NCBI GenBank assembly: GCA_016783155.1
Contig: JADHXB010000001.1
Coordinates: 1,228-65,227 of the forward strand
From: Dehalococcoidia bacterium
Lineage (GTDB): Bacteria; Chloroflexota; Dehalococcoidia; GIF9; UBA5629
Length of the DNA stretch: 64,000 bases
Direction: 5' to 3'
Shown in pieces: positions 5,116 to 40,717 of the stretch. A model generated the notes under the pieces. The model was given only the letters and a program-made list of their open reading frames with translations, was not told the DNA's origin and searched no databases. A program made the position numbers and the translations under genes. Position 1 is the stretch's first letter, and each line of letters starts with the position of its first letter.

Positions 5116-6831
5116 ATGTCCTGGACGTGGAACTTGTATGTCAGAGAATTTATGCCTCAAAGAGACCTGAAGAAATACCCGATGTGGTTCATGAACTTTG
5201 GCCATAGCTACCCGGCGTGGACGCCCCTATTTGGCTGGCACTGGAATTATGCCTTAGCTCACGGTCTCACATACGGCGTTAATGAGACATGGATACCTAC
5301 CATCAGGGGGAGTGAGGTTCGAAATATAGAAGGGTGTGCCCTAGCTGCCGCTTCCAGGATTAGTGATGAGGCTGAGATTGCGGAAAGAGAAAAGAAATTC
5401 AAAAAGTACATACTTGAAGAGTACGCTCCCAATTGGGACAAGCTTTATAAAGGTATGGAAGACGAAATAAATGGACTTTCTAAAAAGTTCAGGACTTATG
5501 ATTACGAAAAGGCAACACAGTACGAGTTGTACAAGGTATTCAGGGAGGCGGTACAGTATCTCTACCGTTCTTGGGAAGGTCACTTCTATATGATGTTTCC
5601 CATGTATACCGCCTACTGGTATTGTGACGAGATTGCTGCGGAATACGGCGGTGTACAGGAGTTTTCTCCCACATGGCATAAAATAATACGAGGCTATGAC
5701 AATGACCTTTTTGCGCAGGACAAAGCGCTATGGGGACTCCGTACCCGTGTCTTGGAGCTTAAGATTGAGGATATCTTCACTGAGAATGCTGCCTCCGAGG
5801 TAATCCCGGCTCTAAAAAAGACTGCGGCTGGTAAGGAATGGGTGGAGAAGGATCTAAACGATTTTTTGCTGGTAAAGGGCTGCGGTTGGCGCTCGCCGCG
5901 GATGATGGAGTTTATCATTCCTTCATGGTGGGAAGACCCAACGCCAGCCATAAATCACATTCAGCAATACCTCTCGCTGTCAAAGGACGTTAAAGCTCCA
6001 TTCCTACTTGATACCATAAGACCCCGCTTGGTCAAGGAGCGGGAAGAATTAACCCGTGACTTAATCGACAAAGTGAAGGCCGCCGGCTATCCCGACATGG
6101 ACTGGTTTCTGGCGCTCCTTAACGTGAGTCAGAGGACAAGCTCTTACAGCGAAAGTCATGATGTGGCATGGGAACAGGGGTGCTTGACCACCTTCCGCTA
6201 CTGTGTGAGGAAGATTGGAGAGAGGCTGGTAAAGTTTGGCACTATTGGAACTCCTGATGACATGTTCTTTTTCATTCCTGATGAACTGGAGTTATTTATT
6301 GCTTATCCCGACGCATACGATGTCAAAGACCTTGCTGAGGAACGCAAGAAAACCTGGACGGCACAGAAGGAATATAGCTCACGGCCGCCTATTTTTACCA
6401 GTGGACCATTAACACCGGAGGATATAAATAAGCATCAGGTTAGTGTTCACGATGCCATAGTTTCCAAGGTTGTTGCTGGTGTGGAAGCTGCCCGCAGGCC
6501 TGAAACCGGCGCCATCTGCTTTGGTAATTGCGGTAGTCCTGCTGGCACTGTCGAAGGCAGAGCACATCTGGTACTAGCAAATGAAGATGTATTTGCAGTG
6601 CAACCAGGCGATATTCTGATTTGTCCCTCTATGTCTTCGGGGTGGACTCCGGTGCTACCGCTGGCTAAAGCAATAGTCACTAATGGTGGCGGTTCTCTCA
6701 GCCATGCTTGCATTCACGGCAGAGAATATGATATTCCAGTAGTATCAAACACGCGTGATGCCACGATGGTTATCAAAGAAGGCGAAAAAATCCGGGTTGA
6801 TGCTACTGAGGGACTTGTCTTCCGAGTATAA
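5116..6831 (+). CDS. PEP-utilizing-enzyme mobile (phosphohistidine) domain protein, phenylphosphate synthase PpsA-like
   Basis: 571 aa. C-terminus TNGGGSLSHACIHGREYDIPVVS...IRVDATEGLVF matches the PEP-utilizers swivel domain with the phospho-His region. About 440 aa of N-terminal domain is unassigned. Strong RBS AAGGAGGG. Confidence 0.8.
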   Translation: MSWTWNLYVREFMPQRDLKKYPMWFMNFGHSYPAWTPLFGWHWNYALAHGLTYGVNETWIPTIRGSEVRNIEGCALAAASRISDEAEIAEREKKFKKYILEEYAPNWDKLYKGMEDEINGLSKKFRTYDYEKATQYELYKVFREAVQYLYRSWEGHFYMMFPMYTAYWYCDEIAAEYGGVQEFSPTWHKIIRGYDNDLFAQDKALWGLRTRVLELKIEDIFTENAASEVIPALKKTAAGKEWVEKDLNDFLLVKGCGWRSPRMMEFIIPSWWEDPTPAINHIQQYLSLSKDVKAPFLLDTIRPRLVKEREELTRDLIDKVKAAGYPDMDWFLALLNVSQRTSSYSESHDVAWEQGCLTTFRYCVRKIGERLVKFGTIGTPDDMFFFIPDELELFIAYPDAYDVKDLAEERKKTWTAQKEYSSRPPIFTSGPLTPEDINKHQVSVHDAIVSKVVAGVEAARRPETGAICFGNCGSPAGTVEGRAHLVLANEDVFAVQPGDILICPSMSSGWTPVLPLAKAIVTNGGGSLSHACIHGREYDIPVVSNTRDATMVIKEGEKIRVDATEGLVFRV

Positions 6832-7276: not shown

Positions 7277-9118
7277 ATGCGTGGTTATACTGGCAAGCTT
7301 TTGCGTATTAATCTAAGTAACCGTAGGAGCCAAGTCGAGGATATACCTGAGCAATTGATGAAGGATTTCCTTGGGGGGCGAGGTCTTGCTGTTAAGTATC
7401 TTTACAGCGAGCTTAAGCCTGGGGTAGACGCATTAGGGCCGGACAACAAATTGTTGTTCATGATGGGGCCCCTTGGTGCTACTACCGCCATGTCTGTTTC
7501 CAGAATAGCTGTAGTAACCAAGAGCCCTATCACTGGATGTATAGCTAAATCTATCGCAGGTGGCAACTTCGGTGCCTTCCTTAAGTTCGCTGGTTTCGAC
7601 GGGGTAATATTAGAAGGTAAGGCTGAGAAGCCAACTTATATCCATATTGATGGCGATGGGGTTCATATGCTGGATGCGGATGAAATTTGGGGGCTGGATA
7701 CTGAAGAAACTCAAATGAAACTGCGGCAGATGCATGGCAACTCAACGAAGACTATTTGTATCGGGCCAGCTGGGGAGAAGCTGGTTCGCTATGCCATAGT
7801 TATTAGCGAGCTCCGCTGTGGTGGGCGTACTGGCGTGGGTACCGTGATGGGAGCCAAAAACTTAAAGGCTATAGCTGTCAACTCATCCGGACCACTCGGT
7901 GTATATGACTCGCAGCAATTCAAAAGTTTAGCCAGGGAGCAGATCGAAGGCTTAAGGACAAGTCCCCGGCGGATTCAGATGACCGATTTTGGAACATCAT
8001 ACCTGACCTTAGGCTTTGAGAAGATGGGTATATTCCCGGTGAAGAACTTTCAGGAGGGACATCTTGAAGGTGTCGAGAAGATAAGCGATGAAGCATTCGC
8101 TAAGATAAAGGTCGGGAACAATGGTTGCTATGGCTGTATGACAAAGTGCGGTCAAGAACGCAGGGTAACTGAAGGCCCCTATGCCGGCGCCTTTAGCGAA
8201 GGACCTGATTATGAGTCCATCTGGTCTTTGGGTGGCAATTGGGCCAATACTAATTTGGGTTCTATAATAGCGGCAGACTCCCTCTGTGACAAGCTCGGCA
8301 TGGATACTATCAGCGCGGGTAGCGCTGTTGGCTTCGCCTGCGAGCTATTTGAAAGAGGGATAATTACCAAGAAAGATACCGATGGACTTGACCTTACCTG
8401 GGGTAACCATGGCGATATGCTAAAGCTAGTGGAGAAGATTGGCAGACGGGAAGGGTTTGGAGAGTTGCTTGGTGAAGGTACCAAACGAGCCGCCGAACAT
8501 ATTGGCAAGGGTGCTGAAGCCTATGCTATGCATGTCAAGGGCCTTGAGATTCCAGCCTATGAACCGCGCGCTGTTAAGGGCTATGGACTAATGTTTGCTA
8601 CTTCAAACATAGGTGCCAACCATATGTATGGTCGACCTAGGGAAGAACTAGCTGGCAAGGTGGATAGATTTGCTGATGAAGGCAAGGGCAAAGACATTGC
8701 CCGCAACCAAATAGCACAGGCAGTGGAAGACTCGGTTGTTCAGTGCAGCTTTACGCCTGCTACCGGGCTTACTCCCGAGTCACGTGCGAAGCTCCTTGTG
8801 GCAGCTACTGGGTTCAACGAGTTTAGTGACCCGGCCTATTTGGACCTGATAGGGGAAAGAATTCTTTGCCTTGAGCGTTCGTTTAATGTGCGTGATGGGT
8901 TCAGTCGCAAGGATGACACCCTCCCTGCCAGGATGCTAACCGAGCCCTTAAAGAATGCTGGCCCAGCTACGGGACAGGTAGTACGGAAGCTGGATACGCT
9001 TCTGGATGAGTATTATGATGCCCTTGGCTATTCTCCTCAAGGCATACCTACAACGGAGAAGCTGGGGCAAATAGGCTTAGACTGGGTGATAGAGGATATC
9101 AAGGGATTTGTTAAGTGA
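7277..9118 (+). CDS. aor: tungsten/molybdenum aldehyde:ferredoxin oxidoreductase (AOR family) #1
   Basis: 613 aa. N-terminus MRGYTGKLLRINLS typical of AOR_N; Cys-containing cluster region NNGCYGCMTKCG; C-terminal AOR catalytic domains. GGAGGTG RBS. Confidence 0.92.
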   Translation: MRGYTGKLLRINLSNRRSQVEDIPEQLMKDFLGGRGLAVKYLYSELKPGVDALGPDNKLLFMMGPLGATTAMSVSRIAVVTKSPITGCIAKSIAGGNFGAFLKFAGFDGVILEGKAEKPTYIHIDGDGVHMLDADEIWGLDTEETQMKLRQMHGNSTKTICIGPAGEKLVRYAIVISELRCGGRTGVGTVMGAKNLKAIAVNSSGPLGVYDSQQFKSLAREQIEGLRTSPRRIQMTDFGTSYLTLGFEKMGIFPVKNFQEGHLEGVEKISDEAFAKIKVGNNGCYGCMTKCGQERRVTEGPYAGAFSEGPDYESIWSLGGNWANTNLGSIIAADSLCDKLGMDTISAGSAVGFACELFERGIITKKDTDGLDLTWGNHGDMLKLVEKIGRREGFGELLGEGTKRAAEHIGKGAEAYAMHVKGLEIPAYEPRAVKGYGLMFATSNIGANHMYGRPREELAGKVDRFADEGKGKDIARNQIAQAVEDSVVQCSFTPATGLTPESRAKLLVAATGFNEFSDPAYLDLIGERILCLERSFNVRDGFSRKDDTLPARMLTEPLKNAGPATGQVVRKLDTLLDEYYDALGYSPQGIPTTEKLGQIGLDWVIEDIKGFVK

Positions 9119-9155: not shown

Positions 9156-10001
9156 CTACTGCTTCTGGCGTTGCCGGTAAGCTTCAATGTAACGTCTGGC
9201 ATGTCTATCGCGACCCAGGATGAGGTCAGTGGCCACAATGGCTGGTCGCACCTTGGCTGCATCTGTGATGAGGCAGGTGATACCTGCGGCAACAGCCATA
9301 GCTACGAAGGCATTATTGAGCAAGCCGCGGTCAGGCAAGCCAAAAGAGATATTGCTGGCTCCCAGTGTCATGTTCACTCCCAATTCAGCCTTAATCCTCC
9401 GAATGGCTTCTATGACTTCCGGTCCAGAGCTGGTATCGGCTCCTACGGCGAAAGCCAGGCAATCAATGACAATGTTCTCTCGGGCGATACCAGCTGCCTC
9501 AGCACGCTCCACTATCTTATGGGCAATGCTTACCCTACGTCCTGCATCCTTTGGTATACCATCATCGTCTTGTACCAAACCAACGACTGCTGCTCCATAT
9601 TCTTTCACCATAGGTAGAACCCTGGTTAAGGAGTGTTCTTCACCGCTAACAGAGTTGATGAGCGGTTTGCCCTTGTAGATTTTGAGAGCTGCTTCCAAAG
9701 CCGCCGGATTATTACTGTCAAGGCATAGAGGTATATCTACGGTGTCCATCACTGCCTGCACTGCCTGGGGGAGCAGTGTTACCTCGTTCACGCCGAATGT
9801 GCCTACGTTAACATCAAGAATGTCAGCCCCGGCTTGTACTTGAGCCAGGGCTTCACTGCGTACAATATCCAAGTTGCCCGCCTTCAGAGCCTCTTGAAGT
9901 TTTGTTTTCCCGGCAGGATTGATACGCTCGCCGATAAGCACTGTGGGTTGGGCATCACCGATTATTACTTCTTTTGTGGGGCTTGACACTATCGTTTCCA
10001 T
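9156..10001 (-). CDS. pterin-binding methyltransferase (MtrH/AcsE-like; methyl-corrinoid:tetrahydrofolate methyltransferase, MT-II)
   Basis: 281 aa with a pterin-binding TIM-barrel pattern (..VLIGERINPAGK..DILDVNVG..PLCLDSNN..). Last gene of the corrinoid operon; start overlaps the RACo stop. Confidence 0.8.
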   Translation of the reverse strand: METIVSSPTKEVIIGDAQPTVLIGERINPAGKTKLQEALKAGNLDIVRSEALAQVQAGADILDVNVGTFGVNEVTLLPQAVQAVMDTVDIPLCLDSNNPAALEAALKIYKGKPLINSVSGEEHSLTRVLPMVKEYGAAVVGLVQDDDGIPKDAGRRVSIAHKIVERAEAAGIARENIVIDCLAFAVGADTSSGPEVIEAIRRIKAELGVNMTLGASNISFGLPDRGLLNNAFVAMAVAAGITCLITDAAKVRPAIVATDLILGRDRHARRYIEAYRQRQKQ

Positions 10002-11887
10002 CAGTCGATTTCCTCCCTTTTACCGTCTATAATCCTGTATTGTCCCAGGTAACTCGCCTGGATGAAGGTCTGATCAAAGCCAGGAGCACCGGCTAATTCA
10101 ATGTACTTGACTCGGGAGGCAACAACCTGCGCCTCAGCTCGCTTGGTAAGGGAAATCAGTGCCAGTTTGGCTCCCATGCCGGCAGCGTTTCCTGCCTGTT
10201 GGAAACGGTTTAGAGGCAGTGATGGCAACATGCCAATTGTTACCGCACTGGCCACATCGATGTAGGTGCCAAAGGCTCCGGCGATAATCACCTGCTTAAT
10301 TTTGTCTTCAGGGCAGCCGCTCGCTTCTAAAAGTGTCTGGATACCGCTGCGGATGGCAGCCTTGGCCAGTTGCAGTTCTCTGATATCGTGCTGAGTGATA
10401 GTGATGGCTGGCTTCCCTCCTCGTTCTTCTTTACCAACCAATACAAACTCGCGTTGCCCTTTGTAGGTACGAACACGAGGGTGGTTGTCCGTTATTCTGC
10501 CGCCTTCATCGATGACTTTAGTCAGATAAAGCTGGGATAGGGCATCTAGTATACCAGACCCGCAAATGCCGATTGGTGGTGCTCCGTCAATCGTCTGGTA
10601 CTGTATGATATCATCTACAATTCGTAGGCGTTCGATAGCGCCAGTGGCAGCCCGCATACCATACTTGATATGACCGCCTTCGAATGCTGGACCCGAGGCA
10701 CAGGAGGTGGAAGTAATCTTCCCATCATGTATCAGAGAAACCTCGGTATTAGTCCCGATGTCCAGAGCCACTACTGGTATTTTGGCTGGCAGTACTTCAG
10801 TTGCCAGCAACATGGCTACATGGTCGGCACCAACGAAACCGGCGATGTTGGGCAGCAAGTGAACATATGCCCCGGGAGAAATATGCAAGCCCAGGTCGCC
10901 AGCCTTAACGTCCACAGCCCTGCTAACCGCAGGGACAAAGGGAGACAGAGCCAGTTGTTTTACTGGCAAACCGAGGAAAAGGTGGTGCATGGCGGTATTG
11001 CCGACTACTACTGCCTCGACAATCTCCTCTATGCCGGCGTTAGCTTCGGCACACAGGTCAGCGCAAAGTCCGTTGATTGCCTCGACAGCCAGCTTTTGTA
11101 ACAGCATGCCATCATCCGGCGAGTGTACGACACCAGTAATACGGCTGATGATGTCCTCTCCGTGGCTGATTTGGGGGTTCATGACCCCTTTGGCTGCTAA
11201 AGTCAGGCCATCGCTCAGATTAATCAGATAGCCGGCAATCTTGGTTGTGCCCAGGTCTATGGCTAACCCCAGTTGGTGGCTTGACTGGGGAAGAAGAGCT
11301 ATTACTTCGTCATTGCGGACTACAGCCTGGAACTCCCAGTTCCAAGAACGTATTTGTGTGGAAAGGACACGCAGGACATTAATGTCAATTTTGCCGCAGT
11401 TTAATTGGTGTTGCTGGTTTAGCACCTGGAGCAAACGGTCGGCATCAGCGTCTGGTGCCGACAACGATGGAGCTTCCATCTGAATGCGGTAGGCTCGAAC
11501 AGGCGGCTCCGGATGAACTTTTACCTCTAATCCCTCTACCTGGATTCGCTGGGTGGTGGTCATCGACTCGGGTGGCACAGTCAATTTGCAGTCACTAAGA
11601 GGATAAGTCTGACAGGCTAGACGCCAGCCCTCCTTCAGTTCTTGGGATGTAAATGCCTCCCGCTCGTTAGGCGTTGGTTTTGAGACAGTGCCACTTAGAA
11701 CTTGAACCTTGCATGAGTGGCATGTTCCCTTGCCTCCGCATACGCTACTGATACCCACGCCGAGCCGGCGAGCACAAGCCAGAAGGGACTCGTTGTTTTG
11801 ACATTCCCCTCTTCGACCTACCGGCTCAAAATCAATTGTACAAGCGGTCATTCTCTTTCTGCCTTGGCTTTTATCTTGTTGCTCCAC
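10001..11887 (-). CDS. reductive activator of corrinoid proteins (RACo; [2Fe-2S] ferredoxin + ASKHA ATPase)
   Basis: 628 aa. N-terminal plant-type ferredoxin Cys cluster (CGGKGTCHSCKV), then a long ATPase domain typical of corrinoid activation proteins. Translationally coupled to its neighbours. Confidence 0.85.
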   Translation of the reverse strand: MEQQDKSQGRKRMTACTIDFEPVGRRGECQNNESLLACARRLGVGISSVCGGKGTCHSCKVQVLSGTVSKPTPNEREAFTSQELKEGWRLACQTYPLSDCKLTVPPESMTTTQRIQVEGLEVKVHPEPPVRAYRIQMEAPSLSAPDADADRLLQVLNQQHQLNCGKIDINVLRVLSTQIRSWNWEFQAVVRNDEVIALLPQSSHQLGLAIDLGTTKIAGYLINLSDGLTLAAKGVMNPQISHGEDIISRITGVVHSPDDGMLLQKLAVEAINGLCADLCAEANAGIEEIVEAVVVGNTAMHHLFLGLPVKQLALSPFVPAVSRAVDVKAGDLGLHISPGAYVHLLPNIAGFVGADHVAMLLATEVLPAKIPVVALDIGTNTEVSLIHDGKITSTSCASGPAFEGGHIKYGMRAATGAIERLRIVDDIIQYQTIDGAPPIGICGSGILDALSQLYLTKVIDEGGRITDNHPRVRTYKGQREFVLVGKEERGGKPAITITQHDIRELQLAKAAIRSGIQTLLEASGCPEDKIKQVIIAGAFGTYIDVASAVTIGMLPSLPLNRFQQAGNAAGMGAKLALISLTKRAEAQVVASRVKYIELAGAPGFDQTFIQASYLGQYRIIDGKREEID

Positions 11888-12577
11888 TTATGCCTGGATT
11901 CTATAAGGACAGGTTTTCCTGAGACTGCAGCGGGTACAGACTTCAGCTCGTGTCCACGTTGCCATTTGTGGTCCTATGCCGATGACCATGGAAACTGATT
12001 TGCGGGGAACCATTATTCCTGAGGCGGTCAGGCTCACGCCGATTTCTTGTGTGTTGACCAGTTCAAATAAATTCCACTGCTCGGTAAGGGGCAAGCCAGG
12101 CCAACCCGGGCTAACAGGACTGCTTGTTTGATGCCCGTGCGATGTGGCCCGGCTGGCGATGAGTCTGCAGGCTTCTGGAGCCAGCATGTCCACGGCGGCG
12201 CTCCCGATGCCGTCCAGAATCATCCCGCGCAGAGTCTCGCCGCTTTTGCTGTAGTCTGTTACCTGTTTTTCCAGCTTGGGGCCGATGGTGCAAACGAGTG
12301 CGGCAAGCTCTTTTGCCTCCGGGAAGATTGTGGGTAGTAATGAGCCGTGTATCGCTTTGTCACCCTCCAGCGATACTTGGCCGGAGCTCATCCCGGTTAC
12401 CTGATAGTATTCATAGGCCACCGCTGGCTCCAGGAGATGAGTGTTCTCCACAGTGGCTAGTAGTTCAAGAATTAGATTTTTTATCTCAGGCCTGATTTTA
12501 GAATGTCCCCTGAATCCCTGCCGTCGCAGCACTTCCCCGGTCTTCAAGCTCAGGGGGATATCACGAATTGCAGGCAT
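11888..12577 (-). CDS. methionine synthase (MetH) activation-domain-like protein
   Basis: 229 aa. The segment SPGWPGLPLTEQWNLFELVNTQEIGVSLTASGIMVPRKSVSMVIGIG parallels the MetH reactivation-domain core (..[43 protein letters not shown]..). C-terminal CTRCSLRKTCPY Cys motif. Confidence 0.6.
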   Translation of the reverse strand: MPAIRDIPLSLKTGEVLRRQGFRGHSKIRPEIKNLILELLATVENTHLLEPAVAYEYYQVTGMSSGQVSLEGDKAIHGSLLPTIFPEAKELAALVCTIGPKLEKQVTDYSKSGETLRGMILDGIGSAAVDMLAPEACRLIASRATSHGHQTSSPVSPGWPGLPLTEQWNLFELVNTQEIGVSLTASGIMVPRKSVSMVIGIGPQMATWTRAEVCTRCSLRKTCPYRIQA

Positions 12578-12679
12578 GTATTTCTCTTTCGGGGCCTTGC
12601 CAGTGGCGATAGCATGCCATCAGCATGGCCCCGATACACAGCCTCTCCTCCACCATTATAACCTCAGCCCGTCGAGTAT

Positions 12680-14017
12680 CTATTTGTATACGCCGTATTC
12701 CTTGACGGTGTCAACTATCACCTTGAGATTCTCAAACTTGACCTCATCGAAGAACGCACCATTGGCCATGATATAACCGCCGCCTTTGCCGCAAGTATCG
12801 ATGAGTTTCTTGGCGTAAGCTTTCGAGTCCTCGGGTGTGCCTACGGTCAACAAATCCATGGGCATGTTGCCGCCGACGCAGGCAATGCCATCCAGTGCTT
12901 TCTTGGCTTTAGCCATATCTGTCTGGTCGAACAACCATGCAGTCTTACCTTTAGGTAAGTCCCGGATAACCTCCAGGCGCGAGTTATAGCCTCCCTCAGC
13001 CCAAATAAATGGTACCACTCCCTCATCAACTAAGCCCATGATGACCTTTCTAAGGGTAGGCCAGTAGAATTTCTTGAACTGCTCATCGGAGAGGAAACCA
13101 TCAGCGCCCTTGTGCAGGGGCATGAAAATCAGGGGGCATCCGTTCTGTTTTGCTGCGCCTACTCCCAGCTGAATAAACATTGGCGTTAGTGCTTCCATGG
13201 CCTGGATGAGCTTATCCGGCTGCCGGTACATATCCAGCATTATACCTCTAGTTCCCCTGAGGGTATCGCCAATCACGTCAAAAGGAGCTTTGGTAGCGCC
13301 AGCCTGGTAGGCGGGAAATCCTAATGCGGGCATCTCGTGGAGGAAAGCACCGACAGCCCCTATCCATTTCAGGGCTTCATCGCCGGCTTCAAGAAGAGCC
13401 TTATAGGCGGCTTTAACGGGAGGTAGACCATAGGGAATAAAAGGAAGGCTAACTCCATACATTTCGGTTAGTCCGGCGAGAGGAGGCAGTGTCTGGAGGG
13501 GCTCCAGCGCTCCGAATACGCGCGACGGCCAGATGTAGTATAAGAAGTACAACGCGTTATGAATCAAGATATCATATTCATCCGCCTTCATGTATTCGCC
13601 TTCAATACACTGGTAAGTGGTTTCAGGCGGAACCCCATGGCCGGGCCACTGGTATAATTTGAAGTCAAGAATCTCAACGAATTTCCCCGGGCTAGGCACA
13701 AAGGGGCCACCGTGCGCATCCGGCTGAAAGTCCGTGTAGAATTTTTTCCATGCCGGTGCGATTTTGTCATAGTTATACATGACATCGTGAGGGGTTAATC
13801 CGGAATAATAAGCGGGGGCAAAGCTAGGAATTAGAAAGACCGGCACCCTGTCAGGCAATTTCTTCAGTTGAATAGCATCTTTTATCCTGGTTGCTCTCTC
13901 CTTGTATAACTTCTCGGCTTCGGGGCTGGCAAACTCTACGCCCTGTGGTGAAAGCCACCCTTGAAACAGGGCTTCCTGCTTTTCATCTGATGTCATATCT
14001 TCCCATTTCTTTTCCAT
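12680..14017 (-). CDS. uroporphyrinogen-decarboxylase-family corrinoid methyltransferase (MT-I, substrate:corrinoid methyltransferase)
   Basis: 445 aa with a URO-D/MtaA-like TIM-barrel pattern (PDRVPVF..., PFDVIGD, IWAEGG). Sits between the corrinoid protein and activation genes. Confidence 0.7.
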   Translation of the reverse strand: MEKKWEDMTSDEKQEALFQGWLSPQGVEFASPEAEKLYKERATRIKDAIQLKKLPDRVPVFLIPSFAPAYYSGLTPHDVMYNYDKIAPAWKKFYTDFQPDAHGGPFVPSPGKFVEILDFKLYQWPGHGVPPETTYQCIEGEYMKADEYDILIHNALYFLYYIWPSRVFGALEPLQTLPPLAGLTEMYGVSLPFIPYGLPPVKAAYKALLEAGDEALKWIGAVGAFLHEMPALGFPAYQAGATKAPFDVIGDTLRGTRGIMLDMYRQPDKLIQAMEALTPMFIQLGVGAAKQNGCPLIFMPLHKGADGFLSDEQFKKFYWPTLRKVIMGLVDEGVVPFIWAEGGYNSRLEVIRDLPKGKTAWLFDQTDMAKAKKALDGIACVGGNMPMDLLTVGTPEDSKAYAKKLIDTCGKGGGYIMANGAFFDEVKFENLKVIVDTVKEYGVYK

Positions 14018-14053
14018 ATTTTATTTCCTCCTGTATATCTTTGCTAAGGATTC

Positions 14054-14686
14054 TTATCCAGCGCCGGCCCATTTCTTGGCCAGGGATACCCCTGCCATAG
14101 CATCCAGGCCGTAAGCATCAGCGCCGGTATATTTCCTTATCTCCTCGCTGATTTGGCCACCGCCAATCATGACCTTCACATTGTCTCTCAAGCCGGCAGC
14201 TTGTATGGCCTCTATAGTCTGTTTCATTGAATCGAAAGCCAACGCCAAAAAGCCGCTTAAGCCAACAATAGGGGCACCGCTCTCTTTTATCTTTTCCACG
14301 AACTTCTGCGCCGGGACATCCACGCCCAGGTCGTATACCTCGAAACCGTTAACATCGAGCATAAAGACGACGATATCCTTGCCGATATCATGTATATCCC
14401 CGGCAACAGTGCCAAAAACAACCTTGCCCACACGCTTAATCTCCGCTTCCTTGCTCATCCTCGGCTTAACCATGTCGGTTACTGCTTTCAGTATCTCACC
14501 GGAGTATACCAGGTCGGGCATGAAATACTCGCTGCTGGCAAAGCGCTTGCCCACGAGTTCCATAGCTTTCCTGGCATCTTCCAGAATTTTGAGTGGCTCT
14601 TCACCAGCACTCAGCCTGCCTTCAACGATCTTAAGAGCTTCTTGTTCCTTCAAATCAGCTAATGTGCTAACTAGGTCTTTAGCCAT
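14054..14686 (-). CDS. cobalamin-binding corrinoid protein (B12-binding_2 cap + Rossmann B12 domain)
   Basis: 210 aa. DxHxxG motif present (GDIHDIGKDIV) and GGG...cobalamin-binding region. First gene of the operon, with an AT-rich promoter region upstream (14687-15036). Confidence 0.9.
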   Translation of the reverse strand: MAKDLVSTLADLKEQEALKIVEGRLSAGEEPLKILEDARKAMELVGKRFASSEYFMPDLVYSGEILKAVTDMVKPRMSKEAEIKRVGKVVFGTVAGDIHDIGKDIVVFMLDVNGFEVYDLGVDVPAQKFVEKIKESGAPIVGLSGFLALAFDSMKQTIEAIQAAGLRDNVKVMIGGGQISEEIRKYTGADAYGLDAMAGVSLAKKWAGAG

Positions 14687-15036
14687 GTTTCTTTAACCTC
14701 CTTAATCTATATTGGGCTCTTTAGTCTGCTAGCGTTATTATATTGAACTTATTCGGCACCTCCCTTGTTATCTTTCTTAATCTTCTCGACCTAAAATAAT
14801 AAAGAACTCAAGATATGCCATATTCTATACCGTATTATTTAGGTCTTATTTTCCGTAACCTTCGCATCCCTGGCATATCTAGGTGCTACACATTTTGTAA
14901 CATTTGGTGATGATTGTCAATACCTTTTCTCGGTGCCCGTAATGCAGGAAGCCGGTATCCCTGGACCAAGTAGAAAATCCCATACCTTTTGAATAGGTGC
15001 CTTCACACTAAACTTACCTTCGATTAGCATTCTGAA

Positions 15037-15297
15037 TCAGGTCTTCTTTTGACGACTTTCGGGGTCAATGGCAAACGGGTCTATGGCACTAGCTGGGATT
15101 TTTAACGGTATTTCAAATTTCTGATTTGCTCTTGCTCCGGGGGTGAACGGAAAATCTGCCTTGGTGCCCGTTCCCGGTTTACTAAGATGTCCACGGTATT
15201 TTTCGCAGAAACACAAAAAGTAATGCCTGCCCCTGTAGAGGGCGCATTCCTCACACACCTTATTCGAAAATGGGCACATCATCTCTGTCTTGGCCAC
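15037..15297 (-). CDS. small Cys-rich hypothetical protein
   Basis: 86 aa. CPFSNKVCEECALYRGRHYFLCFCEKYRGH may bind metal. GTG start with GAGGAG SD 7 nt upstream. No family recognised. Confidence 0.35.
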   Translation of the reverse strand: MAKTEMMCPFSNKVCEECALYRGRHYFLCFCEKYRGHLSKPGTGTKADFPFTPGARANQKFEIPLKIPASAIDPFAIDPESRQKKT

Positions 15298-15409: not shown

Positions 15410-17014
15410 TTACGACAGCTTAGGTAATTCTGGGCTTTCCCAATCCTTTTGCGGATGCAACCACTTGGCCCGCTCTACAAATACGTCATGGTTTAGAGGC
15501 ACAGGTGGGTGGCAGATAAACTGCGGGTCAAACTCGTCCTTTATTTTCAAGAGCCATTTATGATAGTTTGGTCCGTATGCAGGCCCTGTCAAGTAGAGGG
15601 GCTGGTGCGAACCCAGGAGCGAGGTATAGAAGCGCTTTCTTATGTTTTCCTTAGATGTTTCCAGATAGAACTGGTCAACGCCGTCGGTATTTTCGTCTGG
15701 GTCCCAGTAGACAAGAAACTCAGAGTAGCCCTGATGGCCTAGCTCAAAGCTTTGGAACCAGCCCGGGTCCCCATAATCAGGCATCAGCGGCGGCGTAAAA
15801 TTCCTCTTCAGTTTGGCGTAGTTCTCGCCATGGGGTATCGAGTGCTCAAGCGTTTCTATGACATAATCCACGGAAACATACCCACCACACATAAGCCACA
15901 TACCAGCCGAGTCTGCATTCTTGAACCAGGATTCGTCCGTCGGACGGGTTCGCCGTGCTTCACCTCCGAGTGGAGTTATTATATCCATCAATACTCGCTC
16001 TTCGTATTCAAGCTGCTCCTCCGAAGTAAATCCTATGAGCAATACGCGAAGAACATGGAAGTTTTTGATTGTTTCTTCAGTCTCCTTTGACCACAGCTCC
16101 CAGAACTCCTCCTTAGACTTCGCACGGGCAATCACGCGCCAGAATATTGGTACCTTAGTGACTCCGGCTCCTATCTCTGCTTTTGCCATCTCAACCATGG
16201 TTTGTCTCATGGCATCTTTGCTGGGCATAGTAAAATTGATCCACCTTACTCTATTGACGGGAAGCTGCAGGCTGGTATGTGGTGAGATGCCACTTGGCAC
16301 AAGCCTTTCCGGTTGGAATGGCAGCAGCTTTATAGCCATTTTAGTTACAATTCCAAGGAATCCTCTATGCCCGGTGAAACCTCGCAGCAAGCCCCTGAGG
16401 TCTGGCCCTGGCCCCTCACTCCAGAAAGAGTCATCCTGGAAAGCTAACGAACCTAGCCTGACCAGTTCGCCATCAGGCAAGATGAGCTCAGTTCCCAGTA
16501 TCCGTCGATGAGGTAGACCAACGCGGTAGCTGAGTGGTGACCATCCATCACCTATCATATTGGCAATAGCGGACACTTGCGAGCCGCCCCCACCAATAAC
16601 AATATATAGTCCTCTTTTCATTGCCTCTTCTTGGAGTTGCGAGTAGATAACCCCAGAGCCGACAACGGCGTAGAGATGCTTATCATCAATCTCGAAATCG
16701 TCCATTCTCTTTAGGTCTATAAGCAAGGCATCAGAGACATGTGGATGAGAGCGGGGGCCATAGAATCCGGTGCTATATGGCACATACGGAATTTTATAGC
16801 GGTTGCAAGCCTTTACTATTTTCTGAACCTCCTCTGTGGTTCGTGGCATGGCAACACAGCCCGGGACCCTGGTCATCACCCTCTCATATCCCAAGCCACA
16901 CTCATATCCTCCCGGTCCAGCCCGATAACCCTCACAAATTGCCGGGTCAGCCGAAATATATTCAGCACCGACGATAGATTCCAGTACTTTATATGCTTCT
17001 TTAGATATAGCCAT
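15410..17014 (-). CDS. FAD-linked oxidase (GlcD/GlcE-like FAD-binding dehydrogenase subunit)
   Basis: 534 aa. N-terminal FAD_binding_4-type pattern (..RVPGCVAMPRTTEEVQKIVKACNRYKIPYVP..GGGG..). Third gene of a GlcD-GlcF-GlcD-like cluster. Confidence 0.75.
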   Translation of the reverse strand: MAISKEAYKVLESIVGAEYISADPAICEGYRAGPGGYECGLGYERVMTRVPGCVAMPRTTEEVQKIVKACNRYKIPYVPYSTGFYGPRSHPHVSDALLIDLKRMDDFEIDDKHLYAVVGSGVIYSQLQEEAMKRGLYIVIGGGGSQVSAIANMIGDGWSPLSYRVGLPHRRILGTELILPDGELVRLGSLAFQDDSFWSEGPGPDLRGLLRGFTGHRGFLGIVTKMAIKLLPFQPERLVPSGISPHTSLQLPVNRVRWINFTMPSKDAMRQTMVEMAKAEIGAGVTKVPIFWRVIARAKSKEEFWELWSKETEETIKNFHVLRVLLIGFTSEEQLEYEERVLMDIITPLGGEARRTRPTDESWFKNADSAGMWLMCGGYVSVDYVIETLEHSIPHGENYAKLKRNFTPPLMPDYGDPGWFQSFELGHQGYSEFLVYWDPDENTDGVDQFYLETSKENIRKRFYTSLLGSHQPLYLTGPAYGPNYHKWLLKIKDEFDPQFICHPPVPLNHDVFVERAKWLHPQKDWESPELPKLS

Positions 17015-17017
17015 GAC

Positions 17018-18328
17018 TTACCTCCTTTTACCTGTGCTTCCAATCGATGAGAGTACGAGTTCCGAGAAGTCGAGTACCTTCAAGCTTCCGCCGTTATTGC
17101 TAGCGGCTTTGGCGAAATTGTCCTTGCACCAGGGACAGGCTGAGACGATAGCTTCAGCGCTTACTTCTTTTGCCTCTACTAACCTTTGCTCTGCTGCCCA
17201 TGAAGCAAATTCTGGGAATGCCTCTTTAGTTCCACGGCCGGCTCCACAACAAAAAGCATTCTCTCTCATACGGGGCATTTCCACCAGCTCTACTCCAGGG
17301 ATAGAATTCAGAGTATCCCTCGGCGGCTGATAAATCCCGTTAGTACCTCGTCTACGCTCTAGAGGAGGATTCACCACTCCCCATAATCCGCGTTCTCCTT
17401 TCCACGGTACCCACGGTTCACTAAGCCGGCTCAAGCTACACGGGTCGTGGTATGTAAGTCGCAAATTAATCTTATTAGCAAGTTTTAGAGCGCCTTTTTT
17501 GATTAATTCGTCTACATACTCTGTAAGATGTACCACCTTGAAACCAAGGTCGGCAGTTGACATATTTAGTATCTTGGGGTAATCAACCTTCCACATTCGG
17601 TAGCCCTCAGCGCAACTGGTCAGAAGTGTTTTGGCGCCGGTTTTCCTAACAGCGTCAATATTACGCTTAGCCAACTTCCGTGCTTCATCAATCATCCCCA
17701 CGGAATAGAGCATATTGCCGCAACACCACTCGTCAGGTAGCAGCATAAATGGAGTCCCGGAAGCATCTAGTATCTTCGCCGTTGCCTGGGCTATCTCGGG
17801 ATGGATATAAGAAGCAGAGCAGCCAACGAAGTAGAGCACATCGGCTTTCGGAGAAGGCTTGATTTCTTTGGGGAGCCACTTTCTTCGATTCTCGTGAGGA
17901 GAGCCGAAGAAGTTATGTTGCTTCATTATTTTCTGGGCAATCTTTTTGTGTTCAGGCATAGGGCCTTTGCCATCTTTTACTGCCTTTATTCTGAGCGCCT
18001 CGAGGGTAAGCTCTATTTCCAGGTCAAGGTTCCGCTTGCAGCCCACATCGCAAGCGCCGCAGAGGGTGCAGGCATAAAGTATCTTTAAGAGTTCATCCGA
18101 GTAGTCTAGCCTGCCTTCGACCAATGCCAGCCCGATTCTCATTTTCCCATACGCGCCATAGGAATCAAACAAATACTTTGTGGCGCTGGGGCATCTTGTG
18201 CTGTACTTCACACCTGGCATGTATATGTGGTCCACCCAGGTACATCCTTTACATTTGATGCACCTACTCATATCAAAGATAAAGTTCTCTACTTGCGTTA
18301 CATCAAGGCTCACTTTCGATTTAGGCAT
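17018..18328 (-). CDS. Fe-S oxidoreductase with two CCG domains (GlcF / heterodisulfide-reductase-D-like)
   Basis: 436 aa. Two ferredoxin-type Cys clusters (CIKCKGC...CP, CTLCGACDVGC). CCG-domain signatures (FVGCSAS..WCCG, HDPCSL..AFCCGAG). Confidence 0.8.
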   Translation of the reverse strand: MPKSKVSLDVTQVENFIFDMSRCIKCKGCTWVDHIYMPGVKYSTRCPSATKYLFDSYGAYGKMRIGLALVEGRLDYSDELLKILYACTLCGACDVGCKRNLDLEIELTLEALRIKAVKDGKGPMPEHKKIAQKIMKQHNFFGSPHENRRKWLPKEIKPSPKADVLYFVGCSASYIHPEIAQATAKILDASGTPFMLLPDEWCCGNMLYSVGMIDEARKLAKRNIDAVRKTGAKTLLTSCAEGYRMWKVDYPKILNMSTADLGFKVVHLTEYVDELIKKGALKLANKINLRLTYHDPCSLSRLSEPWVPWKGERGLWGVVNPPLERRRGTNGIYQPPRDTLNSIPGVELVEMPRMRENAFCCGAGRGTKEAFPEFASWAAEQRLVEAKEVSAEAIVSACPWCKDNFAKAASNNGGSLKVLDFSELVLSSIGSTGKRR

Positions 18329-18338
18329 TTTATCCTCC

Positions 18339-19799
18339 TTAGAAGCACAGATTTCCGGGGTTCATAATATTGTTGGGGTCGAATATCTTCTTCACCCTTC
18401 TTAACGTCATGGTATAATCGGCTGCTCTCTCGTATACGAGCTTGGTCAATTCCTCCCCATAAGGCCTGGTGAAAAGAGCTCCTTCGCTCAGCAAAATCTT
18501 GGCAGCTTCATCGTATAAGCTTCGAACTCTTTCTGCCTCCGAGTGGCTGGCCGGATCATAGAAGAAGTTGAATTCCAAATGGCAAGCTCGGTTATGCTCT
18601 ATGGGCTGTAGATAGCCTCCGATATCGCTTATCGGGTAACCGTGTTTAGCAGCTATTTCCTCAATCTTAGTGATGAATTTTGAAGCTGAGGTAGGCTTGG
18701 TGATGAAGAAAAGGCTCTGGCATCCACCCTTATACCGTTTCTTCCAGTAGGTAACTTTTTTGGGCCACGGTTTGCGAAGCATTGGTAGTAGTTTCTTGCC
18801 CAGGCTGGGGAATCCGGGGAGATTGTTGGCAAGGTGAATTTCCGGAAATTCATTTCTTAGAATCTTGTCTAGTGCTTGCTCCTCATATTGTATTTTCCCC
18901 TCTGGGTCTCTCTGCATTCCACTTATTACTAAAATCAGGGTCCAGGGTGGTAAGGAGGCACGCAGCTTTTCGAAATCAGTAGACCAATCGTCTGCGATTA
19001 CGGTAGCCAAGTTGGTGTTGTTTAAGAGAAGGCACTCTTGACCTATTCTAATTCTCAGAACTCTATACAGAAACTCGATAGCGTAGTCGAGTTCACGAAC
19101 AGGAGCGAAAAGAATCTTGTCTATCTTAGGCAGGCATTCAATCTTCAAGTTTGCCCAGGTTACTACCCCCATTGTGCCTTGAGCGCCCTGGAGTAAGCGG
19201 TAAAAGTCCAAACCTGGTCCAGACGGCATGCCACCCTTTGACGGCGAATCAGGGTAGCCGGTTACACTGGCAGAACCAGTCCTGAAGATTTCTCCGGTGG
19301 GCCAAACCACCTCCATGCCTTGGAGGGGTTCACCGTAATCATACACCGTATTGGTAGGCATTTCTCTTTCCAGATAGTCGGTAACCACAGAACGCAAGGG
19401 GTGAGGTAATAGCGGCATTATCATTCTGAAGCCCTTTTTCCCTAGTTCGCTTGTGAGTTGCTCCCAGGTTACCCCGGCTTCTATCCTAACCCTTCTGTTA
19501 AGCTCATCGATTTCGAATATCTTGTTCATTCCGGTTAGGTCCAGGACGATGCCACCTTGTTTTGGAATAGTAGTGCCATAAAAATGTGCGCTGGAGCTTA
19601 CAGGAATTACAGGTATTGAATGCTCATTTGCGAATTTGATGACCCTTTGAACATCTTCAGTCTTTTTGGGTTTTACAACATAGTTCGGCACTCCCGATGG
19701 TGCAAGGCTGAAGTCCGTAGAATATTCCTTTAGAACCTTGGGGTCATCGGTGAACTTCTCTGACCCTACCAGTTTCAGGAGTCCTTCTCTTATACTCAT
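18339..19799 (-). CDS. FAD-linked oxidase (GlcD-like) with C-terminal FAD-oxidase_C domain
   Basis: 486 aa. FAD-binding PCMH-type N-terminal pattern (..VVKPKKTEDVQRVIKFANEHSIPVIPVSS..). Confidence 0.8.
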   Translation of the reverse strand: MSIREGLLKLVGSEKFTDDPKVLKEYSTDFSLAPSGVPNYVVKPKKTEDVQRVIKFANEHSIPVIPVSSSAHFYGTTIPKQGGIVLDLTGMNKIFEIDELNRRVRIEAGVTWEQLTSELGKKGFRMIMPLLPHPLRSVVTDYLEREMPTNTVYDYGEPLQGMEVVWPTGEIFRTGSASVTGYPDSPSKGGMPSGPGLDFYRLLQGAQGTMGVVTWANLKIECLPKIDKILFAPVRELDYAIEFLYRVLRIRIGQECLLLNNTNLATVIADDWSTDFEKLRASLPPWTLILVISGMQRDPEGKIQYEEQALDKILRNEFPEIHLANNLPGFPSLGKKLLPMLRKPWPKKVTYWKKRYKGGCQSLFFITKPTSASKFITKIEEIAAKHGYPISDIGGYLQPIEHNRACHLEFNFFYDPASHSEAERVRSLYDEAAKILLSEGALFTRPYGEELTKLVYERAADYTMTLRRVKKIFDPNNIMNPGNLCF

Positions 19800-20094: not shown

Positions 20095-21660
20095 CTAATC
20101 CCTTAACTTGTGGCGCATTATCTTGCCGGTGCTGGTCTTGGGAAGGTCTTTAGCGAACTCTATCCACCTGGGATACTTATAAGGCGCTATGTTTTTCTTT
20201 ACAAATGCTTGAATATCCTTGGACAGATCCTCGGATGGCTGGTGACCTTTTTTCAGCACTATGTATGCCTTGGGCTTGATTAGATTATGCTCGTCCTTCT
20301 TAGCAACTACGGCGGCTTCGAGCACTGCGGGGTGGGAAATCAAGGCATCTTCGACCTCGATAGGGGAGACCCAAATGCCACCCACCTTGAGCATGTCATC
20401 GCCTCTGCCGCAGTAATAGTAGTAACCTTCGGCGTCCCTATAATACTTATCTCCAGTATCAAACCACTCTCCCAGCATGGAGGTTTTCCACTTATCGTGC
20501 TGGCGATAGTAATAGGCTGCGGTTGATTCTCCCTTTACCTGGAGCGTACCGATTTGACCGCCAGGCACTTCTTCACCATTATCATCGACAATCCTGGCGT
20601 GATATCCCGGTACTATTTTGCCCGAGCTTCCCGGCTTGACGTCACCCGGACGATTTGAAATAAAAATGTGTAACAGCTCAGTGGAGCCTATGCCATCCAG
20701 GATTTCTATACCAAACCGTCTTTTCCATTCATGGAAAATTTCCTGTGGCAGAGCCTCACCCGCTGAGGTACAAATGCGCAGGGAGGAGAGGTCGTATTTT
20801 TTCTCGGCGTCTTCTATTCTCAGCATATTGGAGTACAGCGTTGGCACGCCGAAAAATGCTGTGGGATGATAATGATTGATGGTGGCGAATATGGCTTCTG
20901 GCCGGGGCCGGTCAGGGAGCAGAACTACCGATCCTCCGATGCCGAGGGGATAAAAGAAGCTGTTACCCAATCCGTAGGCAAAAAAGAATTTTGATGCCGA
21001 GAAGAGTATGTCGTCTTGGGTAAGCCCCAGTATCCCCTTGGCGTAGCTGTCAATGCAAGTGAAGACATCATGTTGAAGGTGAACAGCGGCTTTAGGAACG
21101 CCGGTGCTGCCGGAGGTGTAACCCCAGAAAGCGGTATCCTCGAAGGTGGTATAAGCCACATCAAGTTTATCGGAACAGCGGTTAACGATGTCGTAGAATG
21201 AGATATGATAAGCCCTTGCTTTCTTGCCTACGATGATAGTGTTTTCCAGATATAGAAACCTGTCCTTGAAGCCTTCAATCTCCTCAATAAAATCCTCATC
21301 GGCTATAAGAGTTCGTGCCCGGCTATTGTTCAGCAGATAGCGATAGTCGTGCATGGTGTACATGTAGTTAACCGGTACAGGAATAGCTCCGATTTTTATG
21401 GCGCCATAAAAGCTGGCCATAGCTTCAGGGCAATCGTACATGACCAGCATTACACGCTCTTCCATATGCACGCCGAGAATCTTCAGCGCGTTTCCTACCT
21501 TATTTATCAGGCTTTGCATTTCACTGAAGGTATAGGTCTTATCCTGGTAGTATACAGCCACTTTATCACCCAACCCCTTTTCTACCATTTCATCTATCAG
21601 TTTCGTAGTTACATTATAATATTGGGGAATAAAACTCTGGTATTTGTAGTGACTTTCCAT
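20095..21660 (-). CDS. aromatic acid-CoA ligase (benzoate/4-hydroxybenzoate-CoA ligase family, AMP-forming)
   Basis: AMP-binding motifs TSGSTGVPK and GEALPQEIFHEWKRRFGIEILDGIGSTE resemble benzoate-CoA ligases. ORF track starts at 21699, but the ATG at 21660 (MESHYK) has a perfect AAGGAGG RBS, so the start is placed there. Confidence 0.85.
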   Translation of the reverse strand: MESHYKYQSFIPQYYNVTTKLIDEMVEKGLGDKVAVYYQDKTYTFSEMQSLINKVGNALKILGVHMEERVMLVMYDCPEAMASFYGAIKIGAIPVPVNYMYTMHDYRYLLNNSRARTLIADEDFIEEIEGFKDRFLYLENTIIVGKKARAYHISFYDIVNRCSDKLDVAYTTFEDTAFWGYTSGSTGVPKAAVHLQHDVFTCIDSYAKGILGLTQDDILFSASKFFFAYGLGNSFFYPLGIGGSVVLLPDRPRPEAIFATINHYHPTAFFGVPTLYSNMLRIEDAEKKYDLSSLRICTSAGEALPQEIFHEWKRRFGIEILDGIGSTELLHIFISNRPGDVKPGSSGKIVPGYHARIVDDNGEEVPGGQIGTLQVKGESTAAYYYRQHDKWKTSMLGEWFDTGDKYYRDAEGYYYYCGRGDDMLKVGGIWVSPIEVEDALISHPAVLEAAVVAKKDEHNLIKPKAYIVLKKGHQPSEDLSKDIQAFVKKNIAPYKYPRWIEFAKDLPKTSTGKIMRHKLRD

Positions 21661-22039
21661 ATTGCCTCCTTTAGGTGGGGTACGGAAATATGATAGCAAA
21701 ATGGGATGAATTTAGCACTAAAGGGAATAAGAGGACAACCATATTTGGCTATGCTCGGGTGTAGCTTAATTTATTCATAATAAACATCTCACTGAGGAAG
21801 TCTCTTGATTATTTATCGACCACGTTCTTTTCTCCAGCCCCGGGGATATAATGTGCTACTGGCATTGCACCTTCGGCAATAATCACGGCATCTGGCTTTC
21901 GCAACAGCTTTGGCGTATACTTTGTTTAAAGTCTGCTGTTCAAGCTCAATTTGTTCGTGGTTGACATAATATATGCTGCTATAGGAGATAATAGTTGGTT
22001 TCAAAGAAGAGAAATACTTTTGAATGGGGGCGATTAAAG

Positions 22040-40714: not shown

Positions 40715-40717
40715 CTT

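Follow-up and report, generated by a model that had tools for sequence, protein, structure and literature searches.

Introduction

Anaerobes obtain methyl groups from lignin-derived aromatics, among other compounds, by means of corrinoid methyltransferases, systems whose weak point is the oxidation of Co(I). Two routes of repair are known, one that uses S-adenosylmethionine (SAM) and flavodoxin through the activation domain of methionine synthase (MetH), and one in which an activase of the RACo/RamA type drives the reduction with ATP. The closest described systems, the O-demethylases of Acetobacterium dehalogenans (Odm and Vdm), Moorella (MtvABC), Desulfitobacterium hafniense and Methermicoccus (MtoABCD), share a corrinoid protein (CP), a methyltransferase I (MT-I) of the URO-D type, a pterin-dependent methyltransferase II (MT-II) and a RACo-type activase. 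O-demethylase and Mto systems are described as having four components (PMC8630106, PMC10989822) and have been reconstituted in vitro without a fifth protein (PMC8630106). Here, we analyzed an operon whose gene content makes up a complete set for corrinoid-dependent methyl transfer of the O-demethylase type, at positions 9156-14686 of a 64,000-nt stretch of DNA (the window; contig JADHXB010000001.1) from an uncultured Dehalococcoidia bacterium. It has the same four components and differs from the characterized operons in its host, in an MT-I that is distant from every characterized enzyme, and in a fifth gene, not reported in those operons, that encodes a protein of 229 amino acids (aa) resembling TM0269 of Thermotoga maritima.

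TM0269 is likewise a standalone protein of ~200-230 aa with the MetH activation fold; it is reportedly encoded downstream of the MetH gene (TM0268) and is said to be needed for the reactivation of T. maritima MetH. The equivalent of Asp1093 of Escherichia coli MetH, the PG of the SAM motif and a PxK segment are common to TM0269 and the 229-aa protein, while TM0269 keeps the sequence RISPGY and has no CxxCx5C, the 229-aa protein having PVSPGW and a CxxCx5C tail. The gene contexts differ as well, TM0269 lying beside MetH and the 229-aa family beside CP and MT-I and beside RACo and MT-II. With the E. coli MetH activation domain (residues 897-1227), the 229-aa protein has in common the core fold and, by alignment, the Asp that binds His759; it is ~100 residues shorter, free-standing, without the Arg and Tyr of the RxxxGY motif and with an added tail of three cysteines (Cys3), and it pairs with an ATP-dependent activase where the MetH domain pairs with flavodoxin or MTRR.

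On the side of the activase, the split or short MetH proteins of Phaeobacter and Desulfovibrio, which depend on RamA/DUF4445, are likewise B12 modules without a canonical PF02965 (the Pfam family of the MetH activation domain) that are served by a RACo/RamA-type activase. In those systems PF02965 is reported absent, with RamA as its replacement, whereas the window encodes a PF02965-derived protein and RACo side by side. A first description of this DNA, made from the letters alone (the sequence-only reading), had called this pairing notable on the ground that either module alone is usually held to suffice, and in the literature PF02965 and the RamA/RACo-type proteins do stand as alternatives to each other in reactivation (PMC5764234). 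CdmBCA of A. dehalogenans (9RUI) is a further relative, in which CdmB is similar in size to the MT-I of the window, with extensions of the URO-D TIM barrel, and CP, MT-II and activating enzyme follow the same logic; the available extracts of its description (PMC13222342) mention no gene like that of the 229-aa protein, and the context in the window is aromatic-catabolic instead. Our literature search found no report of a standalone PF02965-like protein in O-demethylase operons.

We report that the 229-aa protein is a regular part of corrinoid methyltransferase gene sets, that its family has lost the SAM-binding motif of the MetH activation domain and that it has gained a conserved C-terminal cysteine tail. 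As the explanation that best accounts for the whole locus, we favor, with moderate confidence, an O-demethylase-type operon that has acquired a SAM-independent accessory protein docking on CP and working with RACo.

Components of the operon

Five consecutive minus-strand open reading frames (ORFs) encode CP, MT-I, the 229-aa protein, RACo and MT-II (Table 1), so that the gene content, order and strand given by the sequence-only reading are borne out by the ORF coordinates and by the domain calls. Domains were assigned by Pfam and NCBIfam profile searches, and the closest solved structures by sequence searches of PDB. CP combines PF02607 (B12-binding_2) with PF02310 (B12-binding), carries the DxHxxG motif as DIHDIG (residues 97-102) and has as its best PDB match 4JGI, the CP of the D. 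hafniense O-demethylase (2.5e-49); its score against TIGR02370, 157 bits, is under the cutoff of that model. RACo shows all four of its domains (Fer2 [2Fe-2S] PF00111, PF17650, PF17651 and PF14574), with the cysteine motif CGGKGTCHSC...C and 3ZYY as best PDB match (1.8e-108). MT-II belongs to PF00809 (Pterin_bind) and scores 295 bits against NF005719 (cutoff 259), with the D. hafniense O-demethylase MT-II, 4O0Q, as best PDB match (7.3e-48). The score of MT-II against the MtrH family is only 17 bits, and the label "MtrH-like" that it had first been given is here replaced by MeTr/AcsE-like, a predicted pterin-binding, methyl-tetrahydrofolate-forming enzyme. With CP, a URO-D-superfamily MT-I, RACo and such an MT-II all present, and with CP and MT-II nearest to 4JGI and 4O0Q, the view of the locus as a complete O-demethylase-type operon, which the sequence-only reading had also taken, is upheld. 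The operon belongs to a well-known type of system; it is the conserved fifth gene that defines a large, uncharacterized family.

Fold and family of the 229-aa protein

The 229-aa protein is matched by PF02965 at 29.6 bits (gathering cutoff 25), in residues 156-205 only, and most of its close relatives carry no precomputed PF02965 match. This short match, which the sequence-only reading had proposed as a check, understates the relationship to TM0269, as phmmer aligns residues 1-200 of the protein with residues 13-205 of 1J6R (TM0269) at 5.3e-11. An AlphaFold (AF2) model built on an alignment of 102 diverse family members reached a predicted local distance difference test score (pLDDT) of 95.5 and a predicted template modeling score (pTM) of 0.90; a first one, which rested on a shallow alignment, had reached a pLDDT of only 53.9 and was discarded. 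When the model was searched with Foldseek, 1J6R came first (E 1.8e-12, target-normalized TM-score 0.84), followed by the methionine synthases of Thermus, E. coli and human, and ranks 1-19 were all MetH reactivation domains; apart from these domains, nothing was found under E=0.03. Because the full-length alignment with TM0269, the confident AlphaFold model and the Foldseek ranking agree, the membership of the 229-aa protein in the MetH activation-domain fold, in which helices flank a long antiparallel sheet, is, as modeled, secure.

The family is large, with 4,283 clusters at 50% identity in a whole-library search at E<=0.001. Among the 150 matches listed, almost all full-length members are standalone proteins of ~225-240 aa, and a search for named or cultured members, by profile and among ten distant representatives, gave only entries called "hypothetical protein" or without a name. 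A protein identical to that of the window is recorded from a Dehalococcoidia metagenome-assembled genome (MAG).

Loss of the SAM motif and gain of a cysteine tail

The 229-aa protein was aligned with E. coli MetH residues 897-1227 (MG1655 record) and with TM0269, and motif states were counted in 126 diverse representatives, which share 29-54% identity with the window protein, and in 120 close relatives. In the class II SAM methyltransferases, to which the MetH activation domain belongs, RxxxGY is the motif that binds SAM (PMC9508554); during reactivation, its Tyr favors Co(I) in the four-coordinate form (PMC13376404). The site, RPAPGY in E. coli MetH (1134-1139), is PVSPGW in the 229-aa protein. 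At the position of Arg1134, 87/126 representatives have Pro and 5/126 have Arg; at that of Tyr1139 most have Met or Trp (Met in 56/126), with Tyr in 2/126, and a single representative of the 126 keeps both Arg and Tyr. Among the close relatives RxxxGY is found in 0/120 and PxxPG(W/M) in 119/120. By these alignments, the loss of RxxxGY is a trait of the whole 229-aa family.

The C-terminal CxxCx5C (residues 214, 217 and 223) is present in 120/126 diverse and 120/120 close members, and TM0269 ends too early to hold such a tail. Two further cysteines are partly conserved, Cys96 in 87/126 and Cys137 in 67/126, with neither in 23/126. In the reactivation conformation of MetH, the dissociated His759 binds Glu1069 and Asp1093 of the activation domain (PMC10293825). 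Asp122 of the 229-aa protein aligns with Asp1093 and is kept in 114/126 representatives; Glu103 is conserved, its equivalence to Glu1069 being ambiguous as the alignment is gapped there.

Conservation of gene linkage

The neighborhoods of related genes were scanned in one genome per species, giving 80 loci with a flank of up to 10 kb per side where the contig allowed; the sample is biased to relatives at least ~50% identical, since the scan was built on the closer alignment. The hosts are mostly Dehalococcoidia/Dehalococcoidales MAGs, the others being Desulfobacterota ("Deltaproteobacteria"), Actinomycetota, Anaerolineales, Thermodesulfobacteriota and one Bathyarchaeia MAG. The RACo gene lies immediately downstream of the 229-aa gene in 41/61 loci with enough downstream flank, and a URO-D MT-I gene immediately upstream in 43/58 loci with enough upstream flank. 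Writing ACT for the 229-aa gene (MetH-activation-fold, or "ACT-like") and MeTr for MT-II, we find the complete order CP-MT-I-ACT-RACo-MeTr at 16 of the 41 loci that are flanked on both sides, and an incomplete form of it at nearly all the rest. One such form, CP-MT-I-ACT without RACo, accounts for 9/41; in the eight that were inspected, the ACT-like gene is the last of the operon, being followed by unrelated or convergent genes. Conversely, nine loci have ACT-RACo, with or without MeTr, and no CP or MT-I detected upstream, where the ORFs scanned are unrelated. A search of the ORFs of the 80 loci with the homocysteine domain of E. coli MetH gave no match.

Because the order recurs in related loci, among MAGs of Dehalococcoidia, Desulfobacterota, Actinomycetota and Bathyarchaeia, the five-gene arrangement is not due to chance. 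The frequent adjacency to RACo and to MT-I, together with the absence of a MetH homocysteine domain, makes the 229-aa protein a regular part of corrinoid methyltransferase gene sets, tied to CP/MT-I and to RACo/MT-II and not to methionine synthase. Its pairing with RACo is therefore regular and not the rare co-occurrence of two redundant systems. We had also considered a chance, rare juxtaposition of the 229-aa gene with RACo, which is rejected as the pairing is the commonest arrangement, and a TM0269-style partner of a nearby MetH, which is rejected as no homocysteine-domain gene occurs in any of the 80 neighborhoods.

The single Bathyarchaeia MAG (L032) carries the whole five-gene cluster, with an ACT-like protein 66% identical to that of the window.

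Proposed role of the 229-aa protein

From these data, we infer the following scheme. MT-I would transfer a methyl group, most likely from a methoxylated aromatic, to the Co(I) of CP, and MT-II would then hand it from CP to tetrahydrofolate. When the cofactor is accidentally oxidized, RACo would reduce Co(II) to Co(I) by means of ATP and its [2Fe-2S] cluster. The 229-aa protein descends from a MetH reactivation domain of the TM0269 type and would have given up SAM-dependent reductive methylation. It may dock on the cap-off, His-off B12 domain of CP, with the equivalent of Asp1093 holding the released His ligand, and may assist or protect the cofactor before or after reduction by RACo, or during cofactor loading, a process in which the activation domain of human methionine synthase has been implicated (PMC13376404). 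The Cys3 tail could bind a metal or an Fe-S center. A more specific formulation, in which the family is a SAM-independent maintenance factor for corrinoid proteins, with a Cys3 metal or Fe-S center, docking on the His-off cofactor of methyltransferase corrinoid proteins and needed in vivo beside RACo to reduce, protect or load that cofactor, we put forward only tentatively, as a possibility that we would not yet bet on.

Several points weigh against this scheme. The characterized systems need only four components in vitro, and the fifth protein of this operon may be unnecessary or serve an unrelated function. The upper face of the cofactor is where RACo and a MetH-type activation domain would each bind, which makes simultaneous binding unlikely, and any cooperation must be sequential; this argument is our own, drawn from published structures of RACo and of the MetH-type activation domain. 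No fourth metal ligand is conserved, as the counts for Cys96 and Cys137 given above illustrate. The loss of RxxxGY may still leave room for SAM binding in another mode, and the family is known only from sequence and predicted structure. Finally, the substrate is unreadable from MT-I, which is only 28.7% identical to CdmB, in a clade that mixes ether and haloalkane specificities.

The Cys3 tail also admits a different reading, in which it holds an Fe-S cluster and makes the protein itself a reactivation factor, independent of SAM and possibly of ATP, that docks on the His-off cofactor and transfers an electron to it. The near-invariance of CxxCx5C in a family whose closest relative, TM0269, has no room for it speaks for such a center, as do the partly conserved Cys96 and Cys137 and the CP-MT-I-ACT units without an adjacent RACo; a precedent for the principle is CoFeSP, which holds its own [4Fe-4S] cluster as the electron entry for its corrinoid. 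Only three cysteines are invariant, however, and nearly a fifth of the representatives (the 23 counted above) lack both candidates for a fourth ligand, while a CxxCx5C could equally bind zinc or be structural, and Pfam and NCBIfam searches of the protein gave no match to an Fe-S family. We consider an electron-transfer module of this kind, fed by ferredoxin directly or through a relay to or from the [2Fe-2S] cluster of RACo, unlikely.

A working second module of the MetH type, in which the 229-aa protein would carry out SAM-dependent reductive methylation with a low-potential donor as a redundant route from Co(II), is what the phrase "two reactivation modules" in the sequence-only reading amounted to. 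The fold and full-length homology of TM0269, its reported role in MetH reactivation, and the PF02965 match above cutoff are in favor, and the nine CP-MT-I-ACT loci without an adjacent RACo are compatible with ACT acting alone. Against it, RxxxGY, kept in both TM0269 and E. coli MetH, is absent here; no flavodoxin gene was seen among the ORFs scanned, which cover part of the window; and the tight pairing with RACo, including ACT-RACo-MeTr units, suggests partners and not alternatives. Both the SAM-binding residues and the Tyr that assists Co(I) formation are missing, for which reason the label of a second reactivation module in the MetH sense does not hold, and we regard such a module as decidedly unlikely. 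Of the earlier phrase, what stands is the PF02965 match, the TM0269 fold and homology and the notable pairing with RACo; the self-sufficiency of a MetH-type module is unsupported.

A SAM-independent accessory working with RACo, the reading that we prefer, would have consequences beyond this locus. A derivative of the MetH route, its SAM motif lost and a cysteine tail gained, is encoded beside RACo in many uncultured sediment genomes. If it is a true partner of the system, the four-component picture would have to be revised, in vitro reconstitution and the biocatalytic use of O-demethylases could benefit, and the 229-aa family would be an overlooked fifth component of anaerobic methyl transfer in abundant sediment lineages, namely Dehalococcoidia, Desulfobacterota, Bathyarchaeia and Actinomycetota.

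MT-I and the methyl donor

PF01208 (URO-D) matches MT-I at 67 bits, in the C-terminal half only. The sole sequence match in PDB is CdmB of A. dehalogenans (9RUI, 3.4e-36), the identity given above extending across 244 aligned C-terminal residues, and the same search returned no MtaA or uroporphyrinogen decarboxylase (UroD) chain even at E<=10. The NCBIfam models for MtaA, CmuA and MtbA score 18-37 bits against cutoffs of 235-600 (28-37 against 235-244 for MtaA/CmuA). A grouping of MT-I with methanol or methylamine methyltransferases, for which the sequence-only reading had asked to look, is thus not seen. More than 7,900 homologues of MT-I were found, and the relatives returned were all unnamed and metagenomic. 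CdmB is the one characterized MT-I compared by sequence, and it is through this match that the window enzyme probably belongs to the clade of MtvB, OdmB, VdmB and MtoB. According to a published account of 2026, CdmB is haloalkane-specific and inactive on methoxylated aromatics, and it sits among the O-demethylases MtvB, OdmB, VdmB and MtoB, with 31% identity to MtoB (PMC13222342). Membership of the clade does not fix the substrate, because chloromethane-specific CdmB sits within it. As the gene context is aromatic-catabolic, aromatic ethers are favored, the likeliest methyl donor being a lignin-derived aromatic acid or aldehyde that carries methoxy groups.

The same system might serve a donor other than an aromatic ether, such as chloromethane or another halomethane, a methylated thiol or another small methyl compound. 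The host class, Dehalococcoidia, is known for organohalide metabolism, and the only characterized relative detected, CdmB, is the haloalkane-specific one among the O-demethylases. An identity as low as that between MT-I and CdmB is, however, like the one that separates CdmB from MtoB, and aromatics are the substrates suggested by the conserved neighborhood, which includes genes for an aldehyde:ferredoxin oxidoreductase (AOR), an aromatic acid-CoA ligase and a pyrogallol-hydroxytransferase-like enzyme, so that we judge a non-ether donor improbable.

Some related loci hold MT-I paralogues in tandem, two or three in number, or one additional divergent MT-I (L070, L072 and L077 downstream of RACo; L014, L023 and L025), and some single MAGs have two separate loci (for instance L012 and L014, L031 and L046, L050 and L051). 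This suggests MT-I sets that have diverged in substrate and are each accompanied by an ACT-like gene.

An anabolic reading, with the operon as a "MetH in pieces" or some other consumer of methyl-tetrahydrofolate that methylates homocysteine or a thiol with RACo supplying the electrons, is very improbable: three modules do mirror MetH domains (MeTr the folate domain, CP the cap and B12 domains, the ACT-like protein the activation domain), the URO-D family does include methylcobamide:coenzyme M methyltransferases, with weak NCBIfam matches to MtaA/MtbA here, and split methionine synthases with RamA-like activases are known (PMC5764234), but the MtaA/CmuA scores of MT-I lie far under their cutoffs, with CdmB and no MtaA matched in PDB, tandem MT-I paralogues and several loci per MAG are typical of substrate-diversified catabolism, and the neighbors are aromatic-catabolic, with no link to methionine genes in the window.

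Among close homologues of MT-I, H102 and H127 are kept in 115/116 and H302 and C380 in 116/116; C380 aligns with a Cys of CdmB and H302 with a Trp. By this conservation, the four residues could form a zinc or substrate-activation site, unlike in CdmB, which is zinc-free. Very close homologues of MT-I carry the labels Deltaproteobacteria (82% identity, P0172) and Promethearchaeota (69%, P0223). These occurrences in distant lineages, with the five-gene cluster of the Bathyarchaeia MAG, suggest either horizontal gene exchange between sediment lineages or errors of binning.

Layout of the locus and its neighborhood

The positions of the operon genes, their motifs and the neighboring features are collected in Table 1.

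Table 1. Genes and other features of the window discussed in the text (positions in the window).
Feature	Position	Strand	Description
CP (corrinoid protein)	14054-14686	-	210 aa; cap domain and Rossmann B12-binding domain
DxHxxG motif of CP	14381-14398	-	DIHDIG
MT-I	12680-14017	-	445 aa; URO-D superfamily, probable CdmB/O-demethylase clade; putative substrate:Co(I) methyltransferase
229-aa MetH-activation-fold protein (TM0269-like, "ACT-like")	11888-12577	-	PF02965 and 1J6R matches; AlphaFold/Foldseek
Asp122 of 229-aa protein	12212-12214	-	aligned with E. coli MetH Asp1093
RxxxGY site of 229-aa protein	12101-12118	-	PVSPGW
CxxCx5C tail of 229-aa protein	11909-11938	-	three cysteines
RACo-type ATP-dependent reductive activase	10001-11887	-	628-aa ORF; [2Fe-2S] ferredoxin, linker, middle and ASKHA domains
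MT-II	9156-10001	-	281 aa; MeTr/AcsE-type methyl-Co(III):tetrahydrofolate methyltransferase (predicted)
Promoter-like site TTGACA-17-CAAAAT	14892-14920	-	consensus scan, 10/12 matches; pattern match only
86-aa Cys-rich ORF	15037-15297	-	no family match; between FAD_binding_4/CCG (HdrD-like) genes and operon
FAD_binding_4/CCG cluster	15410-19799	-	FAD_binding_4 (GlcD-like) proteins of 534 and 486 aa flanking a 436-aa Fer4/CCG HdrD-like protein
Benzoate-CoA ligase family gene	20095-21699		620 bits, above cutoff
AOR paralogue 1	7277-9118	+	aldehyde:ferredoxin oxidoreductase
AOR paralogue 2	24594-26450	+	aldehyde:ferredoxin oxidoreductase
AOR paralogue 3	33788-35626	+	aldehyde:ferredoxin oxidoreductase
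Pyrogallol-hydroxytransferase-like molybdoenzyme and Fe-S partner	39884-43312	-	864 aa with N-terminal PF21423; 276 aa with Fer4_11 and CarboxypepD_reg
Split PEP-utilizing enzyme, first part	930-1970	-	346-aa PPDK_N-only protein
Split PEP-utilizing enzyme, second part	5116-6831	+	571-aa protein with C-terminal PEP-utilizers mobile domain

The sequence-only reading had described stop/start overlaps along the operon. One such overlap exists, the RACo stop and the MT-II start sharing 1 nt (TGATG); the remaining pairs are separated by 36 nt between CP and MT-I, 102 nt between MT-I and the 229-aa gene, and either 0 or 36 nt between the 229-aa gene and RACo. The last figure depends on the start of RACo, which is probably the ATG at 11851 (616 aa) rather than the GTG that abuts the 229-aa gene, because gene calls of homologues give 616 aa and a Shine-Dalgarno sequence is present; it is of the GAAAGAGAA type, the same as precedes the 229-aa gene. 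The leader 5' of the CP gene is 350 nt long and holds the promoter-like site of Table 1; an Rfam search of this leader and of the whole window matched no riboswitch or other known RNA family. In a relative whose 229-aa protein is ~73% identical, the five-gene order is the same and is followed by the same convergent block of an AOR, a MoaD-like gene, a phosphoenolpyruvate (PEP)-utilizing enzyme and short-chain dehydrogenases/reductases (SDRs). The upstream side differs in that relative while the order of the operon is kept, which places the 5' boundary of the operon at the CP gene.

The aromatic-catabolic neighbors on which the sequence-only reading had relied were confirmed in the form of a benzoate-CoA ligase family gene, a pyrogallol-hydroxytransferase-like molybdoenzyme, the AORs and several SDRs; the window also encodes an amidohydrolase_2 protein. 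The molybdoenzyme and its Fe-S partner are arranged like the two subunits of pyrogallol-phloroglucinol transhydroxylase and would suit a route, after O-demethylation, from syringate or gallate through pyrogallol to phloroglucinol. The nearest AOR gene is convergent with the operon, with 37 nt between its end and the stop codon of MT-II. Many related loci also have an AOR gene beside the operon, and in more than 10 related loci one lies 1.5-4 kb upstream of CP. The split PEP-utilizing pair is kept beside the operon in several relatives, together with an AOR and a MoaD/ThiS-like gene, and its two-subunit layout is reminiscent, we presume, of phenylphosphate synthase. Lignin amendment is reported to enrich sediment Dehalococcoidia specifically, in a study that mentions no methyltransferase system (PMC10116835), and the operon is a candidate mechanism for this stimulation.

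On the upstream side, the benzoate-CoA ligase family gene adjoins the FAD_binding_4/CCG cluster, a possible electron-transferring dehydrogenase module with an aromatic compound or a hydroxy acid as substrate. The 86-aa Cys-rich ORF that separates this cluster from the operon is probably real and part of the cluster, because homologues hold the same position in two related loci (L006 and L073).

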